Source: an uncultured Chloroflexia bacterium (GTDB lineage Bacteria > Chloroflexota > Limnocylindria > Limnocylindrales > CSP1-4). From it: a DNA stretch of 64,000 bases. The notes beneath the pieces were generated by a model, which had not been told where the DNA came from, ran no database searches, and saw only the letters and a program-made list of their open reading frames with translations. This document shows, piece by piece, positions 28,155 to 35,864 of this stretch (the first letter of the stretch is position 1; every line of letters begins with the position of its first letter). The stretch spans positions 20,164 to 84,163 of the forward strand of contig CAWKHN010000009.1 in the NCBI GenBank assembly GCA_963849495.1, given 5' to 3'. The position numbers were made by a program, and so were the translations under genes.

Positions 28155-28583
28155 TCAGCTGCGACGGAGCGCAAACCCCGCGGTCGCCAGCGAGCCAATG
28201 ACCGTGGCCGCGTAGGTGACGCACCAGGCGCAGATCGCATGGATGACGAACAGCTCGAGGAACGTGAGGTAGGCGACGGCCAGCGTCGCCAGCAGCAGGA
28301 GCATCCAGGCCGCCAGCAGGGCTCGCCGGTCAGCGCGCCGCCACCAGAGGACGGCACACCCGACCAGGACCAGCGACAGACCGAACCCGAATGCCGCGAC
28401 CGGGATGCCCGCCACGGTCGAGTACGAGGAGGTTGCGACCGTCTCGCAGCCGTGGACGGGTCCACACACCGGCGCCTCACCGAGCAGCCGGACCGCGACC
28501 AGGTACGCGGACACACCGAGCCCGGCCAGGGAGAGGACGATCAGTGGCACTCCGAGCGAACCGCGCCCGGTCCGCCCGGACAT
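28155..28583 (-). CDS. Vitamin K epoxide reductase (VKOR) family protein
   Basis: CGPVHGCETV loop cysteines, CAWC active site, 4 TM segments. Confidence 0.92.
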   Translation of the reverse strand: MSGRTGRGSLGVPLIVLSLAGLGVSAYLVAVRLLGEAPVCGPVHGCETVATSSYSTVAGIPVAAFGFGLSLVLVGCAVLWWRRADRRALLAAWMLLLLATLAVAYLTFLELFVIHAICAWCVTYAATVIGSLATAGFALRRS

Positions 28584-28591
28584 GGGTGGCG

Positions 28592-29467
28592 TCAGGGGGC
28601 GGTGCTCGGCGAGGCGTCCGGCGACGCGGAGGTGGACGGCGACCCGGCCGGCGAGGCGGACGCGGCAGCGGCCTCGATCAGGGTGCCGAGCTGCTGGGCG
28701 GACTGGAGCCCCACAATCTTCTGGCCGGCGATGTACATCGTCGGCGTGGAGTCGATACCCATGCCCAGCGCCTTCGTGCTGTTGTCGTTGACGGCCTGAA
28801 TCGTGGCGGCAGCGTCGAGGCACGTCCCGAACGCGGTGGGATCAACGCCCGCAGCCACGGCGATCTGGGTCAGCCGATCTCGATTGAACCCGCCGACGTT
28901 CTCGCCGGCCTGGTTCATGTAGACCCAGTGGGCGTAGTCCCAATACTTGCCCTGCTCATTCGCACAGTAGGCACCGGAGGCGGCGAGCTTCGACTCGTCG
29001 ACGGCACCGGCTGCGGGACGTCCCAGGATCCCAATGTCGTGATGGACGATCCGGAGCGTGCCCGGCTGGACGTACTGGCTCACCAGGACCGGCTCCACGG
29101 TCAGGTCGTAATCCGCGCACACCGGGCACTGGAAGTCCTCGTAGACATCGAGCGTGACCGGCGCGTCGGCCTTCCCGATCGTCGTCCCACTCAGGAGGCT
29201 CGCCGGGTACGCCATGCTCGGGTTCTTCAGTGTCCCGGTCACCGTGCCGCCGAGCTGGCCGGCGGCGATGACTGCGACGATGAGAACGCCGACAACGAGT
29301 GCCGCGATGGTGATGTTGCGCGTCGACATCAGTGTCGATGCGCCGCCTCCGCCACCGGTCGCGACGCGGTTCCGACGCTCCTCGCGGGCAACCTCGAATC
29401 GGTCGCGCCGCTCCGCCGCGCGGCGCTCCCTGCGCGTGGAGGGGGGTGTCTTCTGCTTGCCGCTCAG
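28592..29467 (-). CDS. Membrane-anchored DsbA-family thioredoxin-fold protein
   Basis: EDFQCPVC active site, cis-Pro loop STPT, one TM; start uncertain (CTG 29467 with SD, or ATG 29329). Confidence 0.88.
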   Translation of the reverse strand: MSGKQKTPPSTRRERRAAERRDRFEVAREERRNRVATGGGGGASTLMSTRNITIAALVVGVLIVAVIAAGQLGGTVTGTLKNPSMAYPASLLSGTTIGKADAPVTLDVYEDFQCPVCADYDLTVEPVLVSQYVQPGTLRIVHHDIGILGRPAAGAVDESKLAASGAYCANEQGKYWDYAHWVYMNQAGENVGGFNRDRLTQIAVAAGVDPTAFGTCLDAAATIQAVNDNSTKALGMGIDSTPTMYIAGQKIVGLQSAQQLGTLIEAAAASASPAGSPSTSASPDASPSTAP

Positions 29468-29607
29468 GGGGTGCCTCCGGTCGTGGTCGTGGCTGGACGC
29501 ACAGGCATTGTGGCGCAGATTTGCGTTCCGGGCCACGCGCGGCCTCCGCGATGCGGGACACTCAACCAGACCCACGGCCCAACGTGCACGGCGAAGCCGT
29601 CCGGCCC

Positions 29608-29643: not shown

Positions 29644-30561
29644 ATGACCTCGCTCGTCGATCCAGATCCTGTTGTGCCGGACGCCCGCCCGAATGTGGCC
29701 CCGCACGTCCATGCACACGAGGATCCGGCCGATCCTGCACACGCGCACGCTCATGCCGATGTCTGGCTGAGTGACGTCACCGCCGGCTACGGCGAGCGGA
29801 CCGCACTGGAGCATGTGACCCTTGCCGTGGAGCCGGGGAGCCTGCTCGCGGTGGTCGGTCCGAACGGCGCCGGCAAAAGCACGCTGCTGAAGCTGATGGC
29901 CGGGCTCCTCCGCCCCTGGACCGGACGGATCGAGGTGCTGGCCGCTCCCCCCGGTCGAGAGGCGCGGCGGGTGGCGTACGTCCCGCAGGCGGAGCTCGTC
30001 GATTGGGCGTTCCCCGTCACCGTGGAGGACGTCGTGATGATGGGCCGCTTTCCGCGGCTCGGCTCCTTCCGGCGGCCCGGTCCGGACGACCGCCGGGCCG
30101 TGACCGGCGCGCTCAGGCAGGTGGGCATGGCGGATCACGGGAACACGCAGATCGGGCGGCTCTCCGGCGGCCAGCGACGCCGGGTCTTCCTGGCCCGTGC
30201 GCTCGCGGCGGAGCCGGACCTGTTCCTGCTGGACGAGCCGGTCACCGGCATCGACGCGACCACGCAGGAGCTGCTGATGGATCTTCTCGAGGCGCAGGCC
30301 GCGCGGGGCAAGACGGTGGTTGCGACGACGCACGACCTCGCCTGCGCGGCGCAGCGGTTCCAGCAGGTGCTGGCGATCAACCGCACCGTGGTCGCGTACG
30401 GGCCGTCCAACCTCGTGCTCGATGCCGACGTCCTCGCCCGCGCGTACGGCGGCCACCTGCTCGTGCTCGAGGGCCGCACGGTGATCCTCGACGACGCCCA
30501 CCACCACGACCAGGCTGCGCCCGGCGAGCGCCACTTCCACGAGTCGGATGGAGACGGATGA
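29644..30561 (+). CDS. Zn/Mn ABC transporter ATP-binding subunit (ZnuC/MntA-like)
   Basis: GPNGAGKST, LSGGQRRR and LLDEP motifs; His-rich termini. Confidence 0.92.
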   Translation: MTSLVDPDPVVPDARPNVAPHVHAHEDPADPAHAHAHADVWLSDVTAGYGERTALEHVTLAVEPGSLLAVVGPNGAGKSTLLKLMAGLLRPWTGRIEVLAAPPGREARRVAYVPQAELVDWAFPVTVEDVVMMGRFPRLGSFRRPGPDDRRAVTGALRQVGMADHGNTQIGRLSGGQRRRVFLARALAAEPDLFLLDEPVTGIDATTQELLMDLLEAQAARGKTVVATTHDLACAAQRFQQVLAINRTVVAYGPSNLVLDADVLARAYGGHLLVLEGRTVILDDAHHHDQAAPGERHFHESDGDG

Positions 30562-31439
30562 TGGACGCCATCCTGGAGCCGCTCGCCCTCAGCTACTTCG
30601 TTCGGGCATTGATCGCGTCCACACTCGTCGGGGTCGTGTGCGCGGTGGTCGGGACCTACGTCGTCCTCCGCGGAGTGGCGTTCATCGGTGATGCGATCGC
30701 GCATGCCGGCTTCCCGGGCGTGGTCGCGGCGTACATGCTCGGCATCCCGACCTATTTCGGCGCCGCCGTGGCTGCGGTCGGCACCGCACTGGCCATCGGC
30801 CTGGTGACGAAGCGCGCGGGGATCCGGCAGGACACCGTGATCGGGGTGATGTTCGCGGGGACGTTCGCGTTCGGCATCTTCCTGTTCAGCGCGATCAAGG
30901 GCTACGTGGCCGACCTGTTCAGCTTCCTGTTCGGCAACGTGCTGGCCATCAGCCCGACCGATCTGGTGGCGCTCGTCGTCCTCGGCCTGGGCGTGATCAT
31001 GGTCGTCGCGCTGCTGTGGAAGCAGCTCCTGTACGCGACCTTCGACCCGCTCGGCGCTGCAGCCTCCGGGATCAGGGTGGATCGGCTGGAGTACCTGTTC
31101 CTCGCGCTGGTCGCGTTGACCATCGTCGTCAGCCTCCAGGCCGTCGGGATCATCCTCGTCGTCGCGATGCTGGTCACGCCGGCCGCAACGGCCCAGATGC
31201 TCAGCGTCCACTTCACGCGCCTGATGCTGCTCGCGGCGGTCGTCGGCATCGCGAGCGCGGTATTGGGCCTGTACCTGTCCTACTGGCTGGACGTCGCGAG
31301 CGGGGCCACGATCGTGCTCGTGGAGACTGCGCTGTTCCTGATCGCGCTCCTGATCGGTCCGCGGGGCGTGATCGCCCGCCGGCGGGAGACCCACCTGACG
31401 CCCGAGGCGAACGGCCCGTCGGCAACGGCGGCCGCGTGA
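30558..31439 (+). CDS. Zn/Mn ABC transporter permease (ZnuB/MntB-like)
   Basis: ABC-3 motifs GDAIAHAGFPG, LFGNVLAI, TFDP and VGIILVVAMLVTPAATA. Confidence 0.93.
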   Translation: MMDAILEPLALSYFVRALIASTLVGVVCAVVGTYVVLRGVAFIGDAIAHAGFPGVVAAYMLGIPTYFGAAVAAVGTALAIGLVTKRAGIRQDTVIGVMFAGTFAFGIFLFSAIKGYVADLFSFLFGNVLAISPTDLVALVVLGLGVIMVVALLWKQLLYATFDPLGAAASGIRVDRLEYLFLALVALTIVVSLQAVGIILVVAMLVTPAATAQMLSVHFTRLMLLAAVVGIASAVLGLYLSYWLDVASGATIVLVETALFLIALLIGPRGVIARRRETHLTPEANGPSATAAA

Positions 31440-31909
31440 TGCGCGGCGCATCAGTGACCCCGGCCGCCGAGAGCCCCGCCAGTGGGCTGGTCGAGGCCCT
31501 CACCGCGGCCGGCTGCAGGCTGACAGGGCCGAGGCTCACGGTCGCCGGGCTCATCGCCGGCCGGGAGGGCCACTTCACCGCAGCCGAGCTGGTCACGGAC
31601 GCGCGCCGGGGTCATCCGGGGATCGGCAGGGCGACCATCTTCCGGGCGCTCGAGCTGTTCACAAGCCTCAATCTGGTGGAGCGGGTCGATCTTCCGGGCG
31701 GGGACCACGCCTACGTCGCCTGCGAGGCCGTGCACCACCATCACGCCATCTGCACCCGCTGCGGTCGGGCACTCGACGTGGACGATCCGGGACTGGCCGA
31801 CGTGCTTGCGACCATCGGCGGTCGATCCGGCTTCCGGGTCACCGCGCACCGGCTCGAGATCTTCGGGCTGTGCGCAACGTGCCAGGCGGACGACGGCCGG
31901 ACCCGATGA
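31436..31909 (+). CDS. Fur-family transcriptional regulator (Zur-like)
   Basis: HFTAAEL, ATIFRALELF, HHHHAICTRC and C-terminal CATC. Confidence 0.9.
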   Translation: MMRGASVTPAAESPASGLVEALTAAGCRLTGPRLTVAGLIAGREGHFTAAELVTDARRGHPGIGRATIFRALELFTSLNLVERVDLPGGDHAYVACEAVHHHHAICTRCGRALDVDDPGLADVLATIGGRSGFRVTAHRLEIFGLCATCQADDGRTR

Positions 31910-32871
31910 TGCCGAGATCCTCCGGCTCCCCGAGACCCGCGCGGGCGCTGCGGCACAGCGGCGCCGCCCTGTCGCTCGCCGTCACCCTCCTCGTCGCCGC
32001 TTGCGGCCAGGGCACCGGCACGACTGCCTCCGGGCTCACGCCGGCTCCTGACGCCCTGCGCGTGGTCGCGACGTCCACGATCCTGGCCGACCTCGTGCGC
32101 CAGGTGGGCGGCTCGGCGGTCAGCGTGGAGAGCCTCGTGCCGGCCGGCGGGGAGGTTCATACCTTCGACCCCACGCCGTCCGACGTCCAGCGTGTCAGCC
32201 AGGCTCGGCTGATCATCGCCAATGGTCTGGGGCTGGACGACTGGCTGACGGCCCTGGCCGCCGACGCCGCCACGGGAGCCCCGGTCGTCCGTGTCGCCGA
32301 GGGGCTGTCGAGCGTGACGTACCTGAGCGGAACGGAGCCCGGCTCGACGACGAACCCGCACCTGTGGATGAATGTCGCCTACGCCTCGAAGTACGTCGAT
32401 CGCATCGAGGCCGCCCTGGCGGCGGCGGATCCCGCACATGCGGCCGACTTCAGCGCAGCGGCCGACACGTACCGAGCGACGCTGGCGACGCTCGACGGGG
32501 AGGTCCGCGCACGGATCGGCGCGTTGCCGGCAGCCAGCCGGATCGTGGTCTCGTTCCACGACGCGTTCCCGTACTTCGCCGCGGCCTACGGCATCACGGT
32601 GGTGGGCTCGATCGTCGGCGCTCCGGGCCAGGATCCGAGCGCCGGCGCCATGGCGGCCCTGGTGGCGACGATCCGATCCACCGGCGCGAAGGCCATCTTC
32701 GCAGAGGCCCAGTTCAGCCCGAAGCTCGCCGACGCGATCGCGGGCGAGACCGGCATCACGGTGGTGACGGACCTGTACACGGACAGCGTCGGCCAGCCGC
32801 CGGCCGACACCTACGTGGGCATGATCCGCTCCGACGTCGATCAGGTGGTCTCGGTCCTCGGCGGGAGCTGA
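31906..32871 (+). CDS. Zn/Mn ABC substrate-binding lipoprotein (TroA/ZnuA-like)
   Basis: Lipobox VAAC; VHTFDP, NPHLW, FHDAF and YTDS metal ligands (His, His, His, Asp). Confidence 0.93.
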   Translation: MMPRSSGSPRPARALRHSGAALSLAVTLLVAACGQGTGTTASGLTPAPDALRVVATSTILADLVRQVGGSAVSVESLVPAGGEVHTFDPTPSDVQRVSQARLIIANGLGLDDWLTALAADAATGAPVVRVAEGLSSVTYLSGTEPGSTTNPHLWMNVAYASKYVDRIEAALAAADPAHAADFSAAADTYRATLATLDGEVRARIGALPAASRIVVSFHDAFPYFAAAYGITVVGSIVGAPGQDPSAGAMAALVATIRSTGAKAIFAEAQFSPKLADAIAGETGITVVTDLYTDSVGQPPADTYVGMIRSDVDQVVSVLGGS

Positions 32872-33084: not shown

Positions 33085-33801
33085 ATGCGCGTAGGCGCGG
33101 CGACGCTGATCGCCCTGGGCGCGATCGCCGCCCTGGTCGCGCTCGGCGTCACGGACCAGATCCTGCCGGCCACCCAGCCCCACATCGTCCAGGTCAGGCC
33201 CTGGATCGCCGCGCGGGCACTGGGCGTCACCGCCTACCTGCTGCTGGCAGTCGAGGTCGCCTCGGGCCTGGTCCTGAGCCACCCGAGGAACAGCACGGTC
33301 TGGCAGGTGACCAAGCCGGTCTTCCCGTGGCACGAGATGATCTCGGTGTTCACGGGCGCCTTCCTCACCCTGCACATCGCCCTGCTGGTCATCGACCCGT
33401 ACGCACAGGTCGGGGTCATCGGGGCGTTCGTGCCCGGCTTCTCCGTGTACCGGCCGCCGGCAGTGGCAATCGGCTCCGTCGCCCTCTATGCGCTCATCTT
33501 CACGGCCGTCACGGCGAAGTGGACGCGCCTCCTGCCGTCCGGGTGGTGGCTCAAGGTCCACCGCTTCGCTGCCCTGGCATTCCTTCTCGCCTGGGTGCAC
33601 GCCATCCTTGCCGGAACCGACGGCGGGGCGCTCACACCCCTGTACCTGGCAACCGGCCTGCCGATCCTGGCCGGGGTTGCACACCGCTGGTGGACCGCGA
33701 TGGGCCGCCCGCGGCGCACGGCTCCAACCGGTGACTCGTCGCCGGCCACCCCCTCGAGCACCCAGGCGGCAGCGCCGGGCGCCATCCTGGAGGACCTGTG
33801 A
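33085..33801 (+). CDS. Ferric reductase-like (MsrQ-like) heme-b membrane protein
   Basis: About 6 TM segments; four His positioned as heme ligands (PWHE, TLHI, KVHR, WVHA). Confidence 0.85.
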   Translation: MRVGAATLIALGAIAALVALGVTDQILPATQPHIVQVRPWIAARALGVTAYLLLAVEVASGLVLSHPRNSTVWQVTKPVFPWHEMISVFTGAFLTLHIALLVIDPYAQVGVIGAFVPGFSVYRPPAVAIGSVALYALIFTAVTAKWTRLLPSGWWLKVHRFAALAFLLAWVHAILAGTDGGALTPLYLATGLPILAGVAHRWWTAMGRPRRTAPTGDSSPATPSSTQAAAPGAILEDL

Positions 33802-34280
33802 TGTCTCGTAACGCCCTCAGCCGCCTGGTGCGGCGAGCAATCGTGCTCGGTGCGACCCTCGCCGTCATCGGGATCGGCGTCGGCACCGTGAAGATCGCCG
33901 GCGACTGGCGCTCCGCCGCAGCACCGCTCGACGCGGCACCGGTCGGGATGGACACCGTCAGCGCGCAACTCGTCTCCGAGACCCAGCGCACGGGCGCCCT
34001 GTCGGATCAGATCGGCTCGGTTGCCGGGCAGGTTGCCACGCTGCAGGCCGCGCTCGTCGAGGCCGACCAGCATGTGAGCGGAGACACCAAGACCGCCGTG
34101 ACTCTCAAGCAGCAGCTGGCGGATGCCCGGGTCAAGCTGGATGCCCTGCAGGCACAGCTCAAGGCCGCCCAGACGCGGCTCGCCAGCCTGAACCAGGCCG
34201 CCGCCCGGCAGGCCGCCCTGAACGCGGCTGCCCCGGTCACGACCACGACCACGACCAGCGGTGAGCACGATGGCGACTGA
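33798..34280 (+). CDS. Hypothetical membrane-anchored coiled-coil protein
   Basis: N-terminal hydrophobic segment, heptad-like Ala/Gln/Leu helix, Thr run and GEHDGD tail; GTGA overlap with the upstream gene. Confidence 0.75.
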   Translation: MMSRNALSRLVRRAIVLGATLAVIGIGVGTVKIAGDWRSAAAPLDAAPVGMDTVSAQLVSETQRTGALSDQIGSVAGQVATLQAALVEADQHVSGDTKTAVTLKQQLADARVKLDALQAQLKAAQTRLASLNQAAARQAALNAAAPVTTTTTTSGEHDGD

Positions 34281-34809
34281 GCGAACCCTTCCCGCCGTCG
34301 CCCTGCCGATCCCTGCACTCCGGCGCGATGCTGCACCGCGCGCCGAGACAAAGGCACCCGACCGTGCCGTCACCGGGCGAGGGGAGACGTGGGTCACGAC
34401 ACCGGCCCGTGCGGGAATGCTGCTGGGCGCATCCGCCGCGATCTACGCGGTGACGCTTGCCGGCGTCTCCGGCCTGCAGGCCGGCAGCGACGCAGAGGTG
34501 ACCGCCCGACATCAGCCGTACCTCGAGACCCTCGCGACCGTCCGGGCAGCGAACGATCAACTCCAGACCGCGGTCAAAGCGGCCGATACGGAGGCCCAGG
34601 CGCTGGGCGAGCTCTATGCGCGGACCGGCGACACGGTGACCGCCTACGAGGCACGTCTCGACGCCCTCGCGAGCCTGGTGGCCGAGGTCCAGGGCTCAGC
34701 GGCCTCGCTGCCGTCGCGCCTCAGCCTGCCGGCCGTCTCGGTACGGAGCTCGGTCGGGAGCACGGCACCCGCGACCAGCGCCAAGACCGGCGCGTCGGGC
34801 GCGCCCTGA
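34270..34809 (+). CDS. Hypothetical membrane-anchored coiled-coil protein, candidate flavinylation substrate
   Basis: One TM segment, coiled-coil, Ser/Thr-rich tail ending KTGASGAP. Confidence 0.75.
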   Translation: MATERTLPAVALPIPALRRDAAPRAETKAPDRAVTGRGETWVTTPARAGMLLGASAAIYAVTLAGVSGLQAGSDAEVTARHQPYLETLATVRAANDQLQTAVKAADTEAQALGELYARTGDTVTAYEARLDALASLVAEVQGSAASLPSRLSLPAVSVRSSVGSTAPATSAKTGASGAP

Positions 34810-34865: not shown

Positions 34866-35864
34866 GTGATTGCTTTCTCGGCCCGTGCGCTGGGCTCCGC
34901 GCTGTGCCTCCAGGTGCGGCTCTCCGAGCCCGCGTCGCCCGATGCCCTGGGCGCCGCGGAGGTTGCCTGGACCGGCGTCCGTGACGAATTCCACGCGGTG
35001 GACATCGCGATGTCCAGGTTCCGCGCCGACAGCGAGCTCACCGCGCTCAACCGCCTGGCGGGCAGTGGGATCTCGGTCCAGGCCTCGTGGCGGCTGCGGA
35101 CGGCGCTCGCGGCCGTCCACCGGGCACACCGCGTGACCGACGGGCGCTTTGACGCCCGGGTGCTGGCTGCGCTGGAGCGTCTCGGTGAGCATGGGGTGCC
35201 GCTCGACCCCTTCAGCACCACCACGGAATTCGCCGCTGCGGCATCGCCGGACCACGTCGAACGCACCGGGCCCCGTGAACGCCGTGAGCCCGGAAGACGG
35301 AGGCAGCGCGTACAGGTCCCGGAGGCACCGCTCGACATGGGCGGCATCGGCAAAGGGCTGGCGCTCCGCTGGGCCGCCGCTGCGGCCGTGCGGCGATTGC
35401 CGGCTGGTGCGGGGTTGCTGCTCGAGGCCGGGGGTGATCTCGTCCTCGGTGGGGTTCCGCCGGCCGACGGGTGGCTTGTCGGGATCGAGGATCCTGTTGC
35501 CGATCCAGGGCCGGAAGCCCAGCCTGTCGCCGTCGTGGCGGTGCACGCCGGTGCCGTCGCGACGTCCTCGATCCGCGTGCGCCGCTGGGTCGGACCGGAC
35601 GGGCGTCCGGTTCACCACCTGGTCGACCCTGCCACGGGCGAGCCGGCACGGACGGGGCTGATCGCGGTCACGGTCGCGAACGCGGATCCGGCCTGGGCGG
35701 AGATCTGGAGCAAGGCCCTGTTCCTCGCGGGGCAGGCGCGGATCGGCGAGGAGGCGAGAACGCGGGGCCTCGCCGCGTGGTGGGTGGACGATCGCGGACA
35801 CCTGGGGATGACCCCCGAGGCACGGCTGCGCAGCGCCTGGGTGGCCGAGGGGCGCCTCGGCTAG
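34866..35864 (+). CDS. apbE: FAD:protein FMN transferase
   Basis: MSRFRADSELTALN, FDARV, DMGGIGKG, AGGD, VATSS and HHLVDPATGEP motifs. Confidence 0.92.
   Translation: MIAFSARALGSALCLQVRLSEPASPDALGAAEVAWTGVRDEFHAVDIAMSRFRADSELTALNRLAGSGISVQASWRLRTALAAVHRAHRVTDGRFDARVLAALERLGEHGVPLDPFSTTTEFAAAASPDHVERTGPRERREPGRRRQRVQVPEAPLDMGGIGKGLALRWAAAAAVRRLPAGAGLLLEAGGDLVLGGVPPADGWLVGIEDPVADPGPEAQPVAVVAVHAGAVATSSIRVRRWVGPDGRPVHHLVDPATGEPARTGLIAVTVANADPAWAEIWSKALFLAGQARIGEEARTRGLAAWWVDDRGHLGMTPEARLRSAWVAEGRLG

Follow-up and report, generated by a model that had tools for sequence, protein, structure and literature searches.

Organisation of the ApbE cluster

We analysed a 64,000-nucleotide stretch of DNA (hereafter the window) from an uncultured Chloroflexia bacterium (assembly GCA_963849495.1, contig CAWKHN010000009.1, positions 20,164 to 84,163 of the forward strand), which carries on its + strand a cluster of four genes. 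These code for an MsrQ-like membrane protein, an anchored coiled-coil protein, a small bitopic protein with a C-terminal Thr-Gly-Ala-Ser (TGAS) motif, hereafter the target protein, and a homolog of ApbE. Enzymes of the ApbE family move flavin mononucleotide (FMN) from flavin adenine dinucleotide (FAD) onto the last Thr or Ser of the sequence D-x-x-[S/T]-G-A-[S/T], and seven residues suffice (PMC12052999). An initial annotation of the DNA had proposed the Ser of TGAS as a flavinylation site.

The target gene lies in an open reading frame (ORF) of the + strand (34261-34809) that encodes 182 amino acids and ends in ...PATSAKTGASGAP (in a fuller stretch, ...SSVGSTAPATSAKTGASGAP), with the stop codon at 34807-34809. 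The start is probably the ATG at 34270 rather than the GTG at 34261; the resulting length of 179 amino acids matches that of the 96%-identical protein P0001, and this start overlaps the stop codon of the upstream gene; the gene as we delimit it thus covers 34270-34809, and residue numbers given here are those of the 182-residue form. As the initial annotation had read it, the gene directly upstream of apbE ends in TGAS: translation places the core at residues 176-179, encoded by ACC GGC GCG TCG (34786-34797), and the candidate FMN-acceptor Ser is residue 179 of 182 (TCG, 34795-34797). The core belongs to an extended tail motif, P-A-T-S-A-K-T-G-A-S-G (34768-34800), recognised from position counts in the family, and it is the sole [ST]GA[ST] match among the four cluster proteins; the initial annotation had noted no other at a terminal position in the cluster.

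No Pfam or NCBIfam family is matched by the target protein, even at E values up to 10, and a weak match to FMN_bind is lacking too. The AlphaFold2 model, computed from an alignment of 39 sequences, consists of a single continuous helix from residue 48 to 149, which includes the transmembrane (TM) segment 51-72, with predicted local distance difference test (pLDDT) values of 89-98 from residue 61, followed by a Ser/Thr/Ala-rich tail at residues 150-182 (34708-34806) that is predicted to be disordered (pLDDT 53-71) and devoid of secondary structure. The model thus agrees with the earlier reading of a long helix with a flexible tail behind it, and the term domain-less, used for the same protein, is a fair one. 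The TM anchor (AGMLLGASAAIYAVTLAGVSGL, 34411-34476) reaches a peak Kyte-Doolittle hydropathy over 19 residues of 1.74 at residue 51 and is strongly conserved, L54, G56, A59, Y62, A63 and L66 being invariant among the 39 homologs. In these homologs the 15 residues on the N-terminal side of the TM helix have a net charge of +2.1, and the 15 on its C-terminal side one of -0.5; because of this distribution (the positive-inside rule), the sequences predict an N-in/C-out topology with an extracytoplasmic tail. The N-terminus, predicted to be cytoplasmic, bears a motif conserved in the family, M-T-E-R-x-L-P-A-[IV]-A-x-P (34270-34305), which could be a docking site for a cytosolic ApbE or for the MsrQ-like protein. 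In some relatives two Cys residues flank the tail motif (ACTTASGKPC), and such Cys-bracketed tails fit an oxidising exterior.

The apbE gene starts 56 nucleotides after the stop codon of the target gene (34866-35864, + strand) and encodes a homolog of FAD:protein FMN transferases of 332 amino acids (PF02424, 137 bits, E 1e-39). It aligns to the ApbE structures 3pnd, 1vrm and 4xgw of the Protein Data Bank and retains the HHLVDP motif with its catalytic His as well as the DMGGIGKG and ATSS motifs.

On the other side of the target gene lie the coiled-coil and MsrQ-like genes. The latter (33085-33801, + strand) encodes an MsrQ-like/ferric-reductase-like membrane protein of 238 amino acids with six predicted TM helices, which matches PF01794 (E 3.3e-7, 30.8 bits for a cut-off of 28) and contains two bis-His haem sites, H83/H97 and H160/H174. 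At the loci L016-L033, outside the genus of the window, the MsrQ-like C-termini share a cytoplasmic motif, Y-R-Y-W-x-x-R-x-x-R-P-T-F-[SA]-T-S-L-P-E, which the window version does not have. The coiled-coil gene (33798-34280, + strand) encodes 160 amino acids with an N-terminal TM helix and long helices (residues 4-25, 51-91 and 97-144 in the AlphaFold2 model, followed by a disordered end), and its Pfam matches are weak and of coiled-coil type. This protein ends in an acidic and His-containing sequence, ...TTTTTTSGEHDGD (34236-34277), replaced in relatives by ...HDDD, ...DDD or ...GDD, and a paralog at G000 C5:288057-288473 ends in ...HHGDDGAEGDND; the acidic/His end may be a metal-binding or docking end. 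The possibility that the target and coiled-coil proteins are paralogs was rejected, since BLASTP similarity between them is absent.

Conservation of the C-terminal motif

A single occurrence of TGAS is in itself only suggestive. When the tail was shuffled with its composition kept, the motif appeared within the last 10 residues in 1.4% of the shuffles and anywhere in the 33-residue tail in 5.9%. In the genome, 44 of 17,961 ORFs of at least 80 amino acids (0.25%, mostly spurious frames) have the motif within the last 10 residues, and of these 44, two lie immediately upstream of ApbE genes, of which the genome has four. Another ORF, ending in ...STGASGA (C8:50733-51104), was rejected as a spurious frame opposite a real gene.

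The tail motif can be regarded as more than chance because it is conserved across the family, of whose features it is the most conserved. A word-indexed search returned 195 relatives, and a profile search of 1.84 billion cluster representatives returned 284 (E<=0.001). The C-terminus conforms to [ST]-x-[AG]-S-[GA]-x(0-4) followed by the stop in 135 of 150 family representatives, with the motif 1-5 residues from the end. Numbering from the invariant Ser as position 0, these 135 sequences have T/S at -3, A/G at -1, Ser at 0 and G/A at +1 in every case, P at -9 in 113, A at -5 in 102, T at -4 in 94 and G at -2 in 90, and the logo of the family tail reads P-x-[TV]-[HNQ]-A-T-T-G-A-S-G. By a count over 147 representatives, the relaxed core [ST]-x-[AG]-S-[GA] is found in 132 and the strict [ST]GA[ST] in 79. 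In the alignment of 39 sequences (50-75% identity), Ser179 never varies, and Ala178 and Gly180 hardly do. Besides the motif, the tail contains a conserved LPxR[IL]xLPxV segment and a linker. Whereas the two ends of the tail are conserved, the linker, which lies just upstream of the motif, differs among homologs in sequence as well as in length. The motif [TS]-x-[AG]-S-[GA] is present at all 32 species-level loci, where the Ser is encoded by TCG, TCC, TCA or AGT. As four Ser codons are in use, selection acts at the level of the amino acid. The conservation at homolog C-termini that had been called for in the initial annotation was therefore found for [ST]-x-[AG]-S-G with its invariant Ser, in the 39 homologs, the 32 loci and 135 of the 150 representatives; the strict core is kept in only about 55-60% of relatives.

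A C-terminal sorting signal of the LPXTG, PEP-CTERM or GlyGly-CTERM type was considered and rejected, as the proteins end 1-5 residues past the motif and have neither a TM segment nor a basic stretch there.

Four ApbE modules in one genome

The genome assembly (3.8 Mb, 96.7% complete) contains four ApbE genes, each of them beside an MsrQ-like paralog that keeps the four haem-ligating His residues at spacings of 14 and 13. Immediately upstream of each lies a gene for a small protein whose basic N-terminus is followed by a single TM helix, a spacer that is helical or of low complexity, and a short end with a Ser; the N-termini of the paralogous tail proteins hold 6-13 Lys/Arg residues, which predicts an N-in/C-out topology for these proteins as well. 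While the window protein ends in ...KTGASGAP, the tail proteins of the three remaining modules, in which a signal-less ApbE and an MsrQ-like protein are again encoded, end in ...AHASTGGS (L001, G000 C5:249279-251434), ...TTRQSGVP (L003, G000 C5:286014-288473) and ...PTGASGTPPP (L004, G000 C21:76176-78261).

Across the 96.7%-complete genome there was no match to FMN_bind (PF04205), NqrB/RnfD or DUF2271; a DUF3570 search carries no weight, its control genomes having been silent. No canonical substrate was thus found for the four enzymes, but each has a tail protein. Two other acceptors within the modules were rejected. A cryptic FMN_bind domain gave no match in the target protein or in its three paralogs at E values up to 10. 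The conserved H-x3-[AS]-G-[TS]-D loop of the MsrQ-like proteins does not fit the motif, as its position -3 is not Ser or Thr in most paralogs and the order of Gly and Ala is inverted; the loop is, moreover, predicted on the outer face.

Synteny and phylogeny of the ApbE enzymes

The target family is present in 60 of the 301 genomes sampled from the class, the relatives being named Chloroflexota or Limnocylindrales metagenome-assembled genomes. Of 30 related loci, 28 have the genes in the order MsrQ-like, coiled-coil, target, ApbE, one of these 28 reaching the end of its contig just as ApbE begins, and an MsrQ-like gene lies upstream in 29 of the 30.

A maximum-likelihood tree was built from 57 ApbEs of the class. 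One of its clades (support 100/99) unites 30 enzymes, all 30 of which have a gene with a TGASG-type tail upstream. Other clades pair with tails ending in ...xGGS, where Ser is the very last residue, or in ...QSGKVV[PK], the forms that the tail types of L001 and L003, respectively, take in relatives. The sister group of the TGASG clade includes an ApbE (L063, in the related genome G023 of the same family) that adjoins a canonical FMN_bind protein (...DLVSGATYTS). This protein, encoded directly upstream of the enzyme, carries ...DLVSGATYTSEAY... near its end and terminates in ...DLVSGATYTSEAYAQSLQGAIDQALA. Both designs thus coexist in the lineage.

For two enzymes of the TGASG clade (L048 and L049, genomes G030 and G027), the partner is an unrelated CxxC protein, soluble and about 95 amino acids long, that ends in ...[ST]SASGH and has no TM helix, Pfam family or MsrQ-like neighbour. 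In three other relatives (L014, L015 and L031), the coiled-coil partner has a TTGASG of its own ahead of its acidic end. The unrelated CxxC protein and the coiled-coil TTGASG together indicate that the short peptide, not the protein body, tracks the ApbE. The pairing at L048 and L049 is an independent point beside the vertically inherited synteny.

Proposed flavinylation of the tail and its alternatives

We favour, with moderate confidence, the reading that the invariant tail Ser carries FMN attached by the adjacent ApbE, the tail being a natural flavin-tag on an acceptor devoid of a fold. This appears the most likely reading because the motif is the published core of ApbE acceptors, short tags are sufficient, Ser is accepted and there are precedents for cytosolic ApbEs. 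For engineered tags the N- or C-terminus is the best position, Ser can serve as the acceptor and cytosolic ApbEs exist; among changes to the motif, Asp-to-Ala has a minor effect, and Gly-to-Ala and Ala-to-Val leave about 50% flavinylation (PMC12052999). A tag at the C-terminus of maltose-binding protein is completely flavinylated in E. coli by a co-expressed soluble ApbE (PMC9400968).

Several observations weigh against flavinylation of the tail. The canonical Asp at -6 is never present: the position is held by Ser in the window and, in the 135 representatives, mainly by H (57), N (24), T (13) and Q (12). At -2, about a third of relatives have R, T, S, A or K instead of Gly. Two of the loci have a tail protein with no adjacent ApbE, and the synteny largely reflects vertical inheritance within one class, so the 28 loci do not count as independent events. 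The enzyme itself departs from the canonical A-D-x-x-[SA]-T, reading AEIWSK in the window (35680-35720, ApbE residues ~272-285, DPAWAEIWSKALFL) and AE[VI]WSK in the TGASG clade as a whole; such an ApbE could therefore differ in its chemistry or in the group that it transfers. The altered region houses the Asp of the proposed catalytic triad together with the metal site, and Lys stands in place of a Thr ligand. The Asp and Thr positions, here Glu and Lys, are reported to serve as metal ligands in the T. pallidum enzyme Ftp.

The location of the enzyme raises a further objection. No signal peptide or lipobox was found in any ApbE of the TGASG clade or of the sister tail-linked clades examined. 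In the window ApbE, the motif F-S-A-R-A-L-G-S of the mature domain begins at residue 4, and in several relatives F-x-x-R-A-[LM]-G-S begins 3-17 residues past the stop codon of the upstream gene. With the enzyme signal-less and the tail predicted to lie outside, enzyme and acceptor are predicted in different compartments, unless modification precedes export. In principle the tail, being unfolded, might receive its modification in the cytoplasm and be exported afterwards, and the soluble tail partner at L048 and L049 agrees with cytoplasmic modification; alternatively, the flavinylation reading may be wrong in some respect. Three further possibilities were rejected. No Tat or Sec leader on ApbE was found in the relatives examined. 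Export of ApbE by stop-codon read-through or fusion to the tail protein was discarded, the two genes being in frame in some relatives (e.g. L009) and out of frame in the window and at most loci. A twin-arginine motif in the tail proteins is not conserved.

The same compartment mismatch, together with the missing canonical Asp, the variable position -2 and the paralogous tails ...TTRQSGVP and ...STGGS, which are far from [ST]GA[ST], speaks for an explanation in which the tail is conserved for another reason, as a docking peptide (for the MsrQ-like protein or the acidic coiled-coil end) or as a site of some other modification such as O-glycosylation or phosphorylation, and in which the ApbE homolog has another target or is a FAD-binding subunit. 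We judge this explanation unlikely: no other cluster protein has [ST]GA[ST], and a canonical substrate family was not found in the genome. Furthermore, the class of tail co-varies with the ApbE clade, the tail is shared by an unrelated soluble protein paired with the same clade, and the motif is the known ApbE core (PMC12052999).

Alternatively, the ApbE-like enzyme might modify the tail Ser with a group other than FMN, or through an altered and possibly metal-independent chemistry. The change from AD..(S/A)T to AE(V/I)WSK in the TGASG clade would be consistent with this, as would the AE..AK or AN..(S/A)T found at the same site in other tail-linked clades and the canonical ADAYAT kept by the FMN_bind-linked ApbE of a related genome (L063). 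The idea nevertheless seems quite improbable, as the motifs HH[LI]xDP, DxGG[IV]xKG and ATS[SG] are retained and the replacement of Asp by Glu is conservative. To our knowledge, which here includes PMC12052999, no member of the ApbE family transfers groups other than FMN or exceeds FAD hydrolysis. Finally, a chance match in a low-complexity Ser/Thr/Ala/Gly tail, for which the shuffle frequencies leave some room, is effectively refuted by conservation, as the Ser is invariant and the motif widespread while the linker varies, the Ser codon varies synonymously, and two of the four genes upstream of ApbE have the strict motif in their last 10 residues against the low genomic background.

Metal-uptake neighbours and proposed mechanism

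Directly upstream of the cluster, the window contains genes for metal uptake (29800-32871, + strand) that code for an ABC ATPase (PF00005), an ABC-3 permease (PF00950), a Fur-family regulator (PF01475) and a ZnuA-type binding protein (PF01297). This neighbourhood adjoins the module in 8 of 12 relatives, also in those that have its genes in another order, which suggests that the metal-uptake genes and the module may share one regulon. A VKOR-family protein and a DsbA-like thioredoxin are encoded as a pair at 28155-29575 on the - strand, and in several relatives the module is likewise accompanied by this pair.

If the tail is flavinylated, the cluster could work as follows. ApbE would move FAD's FMN moiety onto the Ser hydroxyl of ...T-G-A-S-G-A-P-COOH, and the resulting bond would be a phosphoester such as ApbE makes on the Thr or Ser of FMN_bind domains. 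Through its conserved TM segment and long helix, the target protein would assemble with the coiled-coil and MsrQ-like di-haem proteins. The two haems would then carry electrons across the membrane to the tethered flavin; quinol is the probable donor because no NAD(P)H-binding domain is present. Carried on a flexible leash of about 30 residues at the tip of a helical stalk, the flavin would hand electrons to an external acceptor. As the Fur/ZnuA/ABC importer genes are conserved neighbours, the role of the system would most likely be reductive metal acquisition, in particular the reduction of Fe(III).

A bolder version of this model can be offered only tentatively, and we regard it as rather doubtful. 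A cytosolic ApbE would flavinylate the C-terminus before it is threaded through the translocon, so that FMN would be exported already attached, with no need for FAD export or for a flavin-binding fold. The flavin would serve as an extracellular electron shuttle on a coiled-coil stalk of about 10 nm and would be charged by the di-haem MsrQ-like protein. At least three tail dialects (...TTGASG-x, ...QSGKVV-x and ...xGGS, each at the very end of the protein) would each have their own ApbE clade and constitute a widespread unannotated class of natural flavin-tags.

Implications

The sequences examined here suggest that the tail is probably a new form of ApbE flavinylation, in which the enzyme is cytosolic and the acceptor a C-terminus devoid of a fold. 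Genome surveys of flavinylation rest on folded domains and secreted ApbEs, and a tail-only substrate with a signal-less ApbE would be invisible to them. If our reading is correct, flavinylated electron-transfer systems have been incompletely catalogued in soil and freshwater lineages, these Chloroflexota among them. The tails would be a natural counterpart of the Flavin-tag and possibly a source of orthogonal enzyme-tag pairs (TGASG, QSGKVV, GGS-COOH) usable for labelling. The compartment mismatch would then raise the question whether a covalent cofactor, once put on in the cytoplasm, can leave the cell on an unfolded chain, and the module would offer a concrete model for the passage of electrons in monoderms from a membrane cytochrome across the wall to metals.

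Comparison with known systems

Through the co-occurrence of PF01794 and apbE, the window cluster counts, in operational terms, as an MsrQ-like flavinylation-associated cluster. It shares with the published clusters of this type (Meheust et al. 2021, eLife, PMC8238504; Huang et al. 2024, mSystems, PMC11334425) a PF01794 di-haem protein, an apbE gene and a small extracytosolic putative flavin carrier, and a role as assimilatory iron reductases has been suggested for some of them (PMC8238504). In those clusters, however, the carrier is an FMN_bind (PF04205) protein, in place of which the window has a TM anchor, a helix and a disordered tail. They were moreover selected for a signal peptide or lipobox on ApbE or on the FMN_bind protein (PMC8238504), whereas the window ApbE is signal-less. 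The window cluster also differs in having no NAD-binding or NuoF-like partner and in belonging to a Limnocylindria-like member of the Chloroflexota, not to the Actinobacteria.

With the canonical substrates (the FMN_bind domains of NqrC, RnfG, PplA and NosR, as well as NqrB/RnfD and others), the target protein has in common the core of the acceptor motif, the linkage to apbE and a presumed covalent flavin for extracytosolic electron transfer. The natural ApbE substrates that have been described (FMN_bind, NqrB/RnfD, DUF2271, DUF3570, FMN_red and Flavodoxin_4) hold the flavin inside a fold (PMC11334425), and full-text literature searches found no description of a natural substrate of tail type or of a disordered one. 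Unlike the canonical substrates, the target protein has no detectable domain, so that the isoalloxazine ring, if the tail is flavinylated, would be exposed to solvent or bound by a partner.

Signal-less enzymes as such have precedents in the ApbE of the Klebsiella pneumoniae fumarate reductase and in the ApbE domains of trypanosomatid fumarate reductases, which act in the cytoplasm (PMC12052999). Their substrates, however, are cytosolic folded FMN_bind domains of soluble reductases, whereas the candidate acceptors described here are the tails of membrane-anchored proteins predicted to face outwards.

The engineered Flavin-tag (Tong et al. 2021; PMC9400968; PMC12052999) is likewise a short unstructured terminal peptide with [S/T]GA[S/T], and it works in the cytoplasm with a soluble ApbE. 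The tag (e.g. GVDGLSGATLTS) was cut from NqrC and keeps the Asp and a Thr acceptor. The tails of the window family, in contrast, are natural, have H, N, Q or S in place of the Asp and always Ser as the candidate acceptor, end 1-5 residues past it and apparently have an ApbE clade of their own. Among the systems compared, the engineered Flavin-tag is the nearest functional analogue of the tail.

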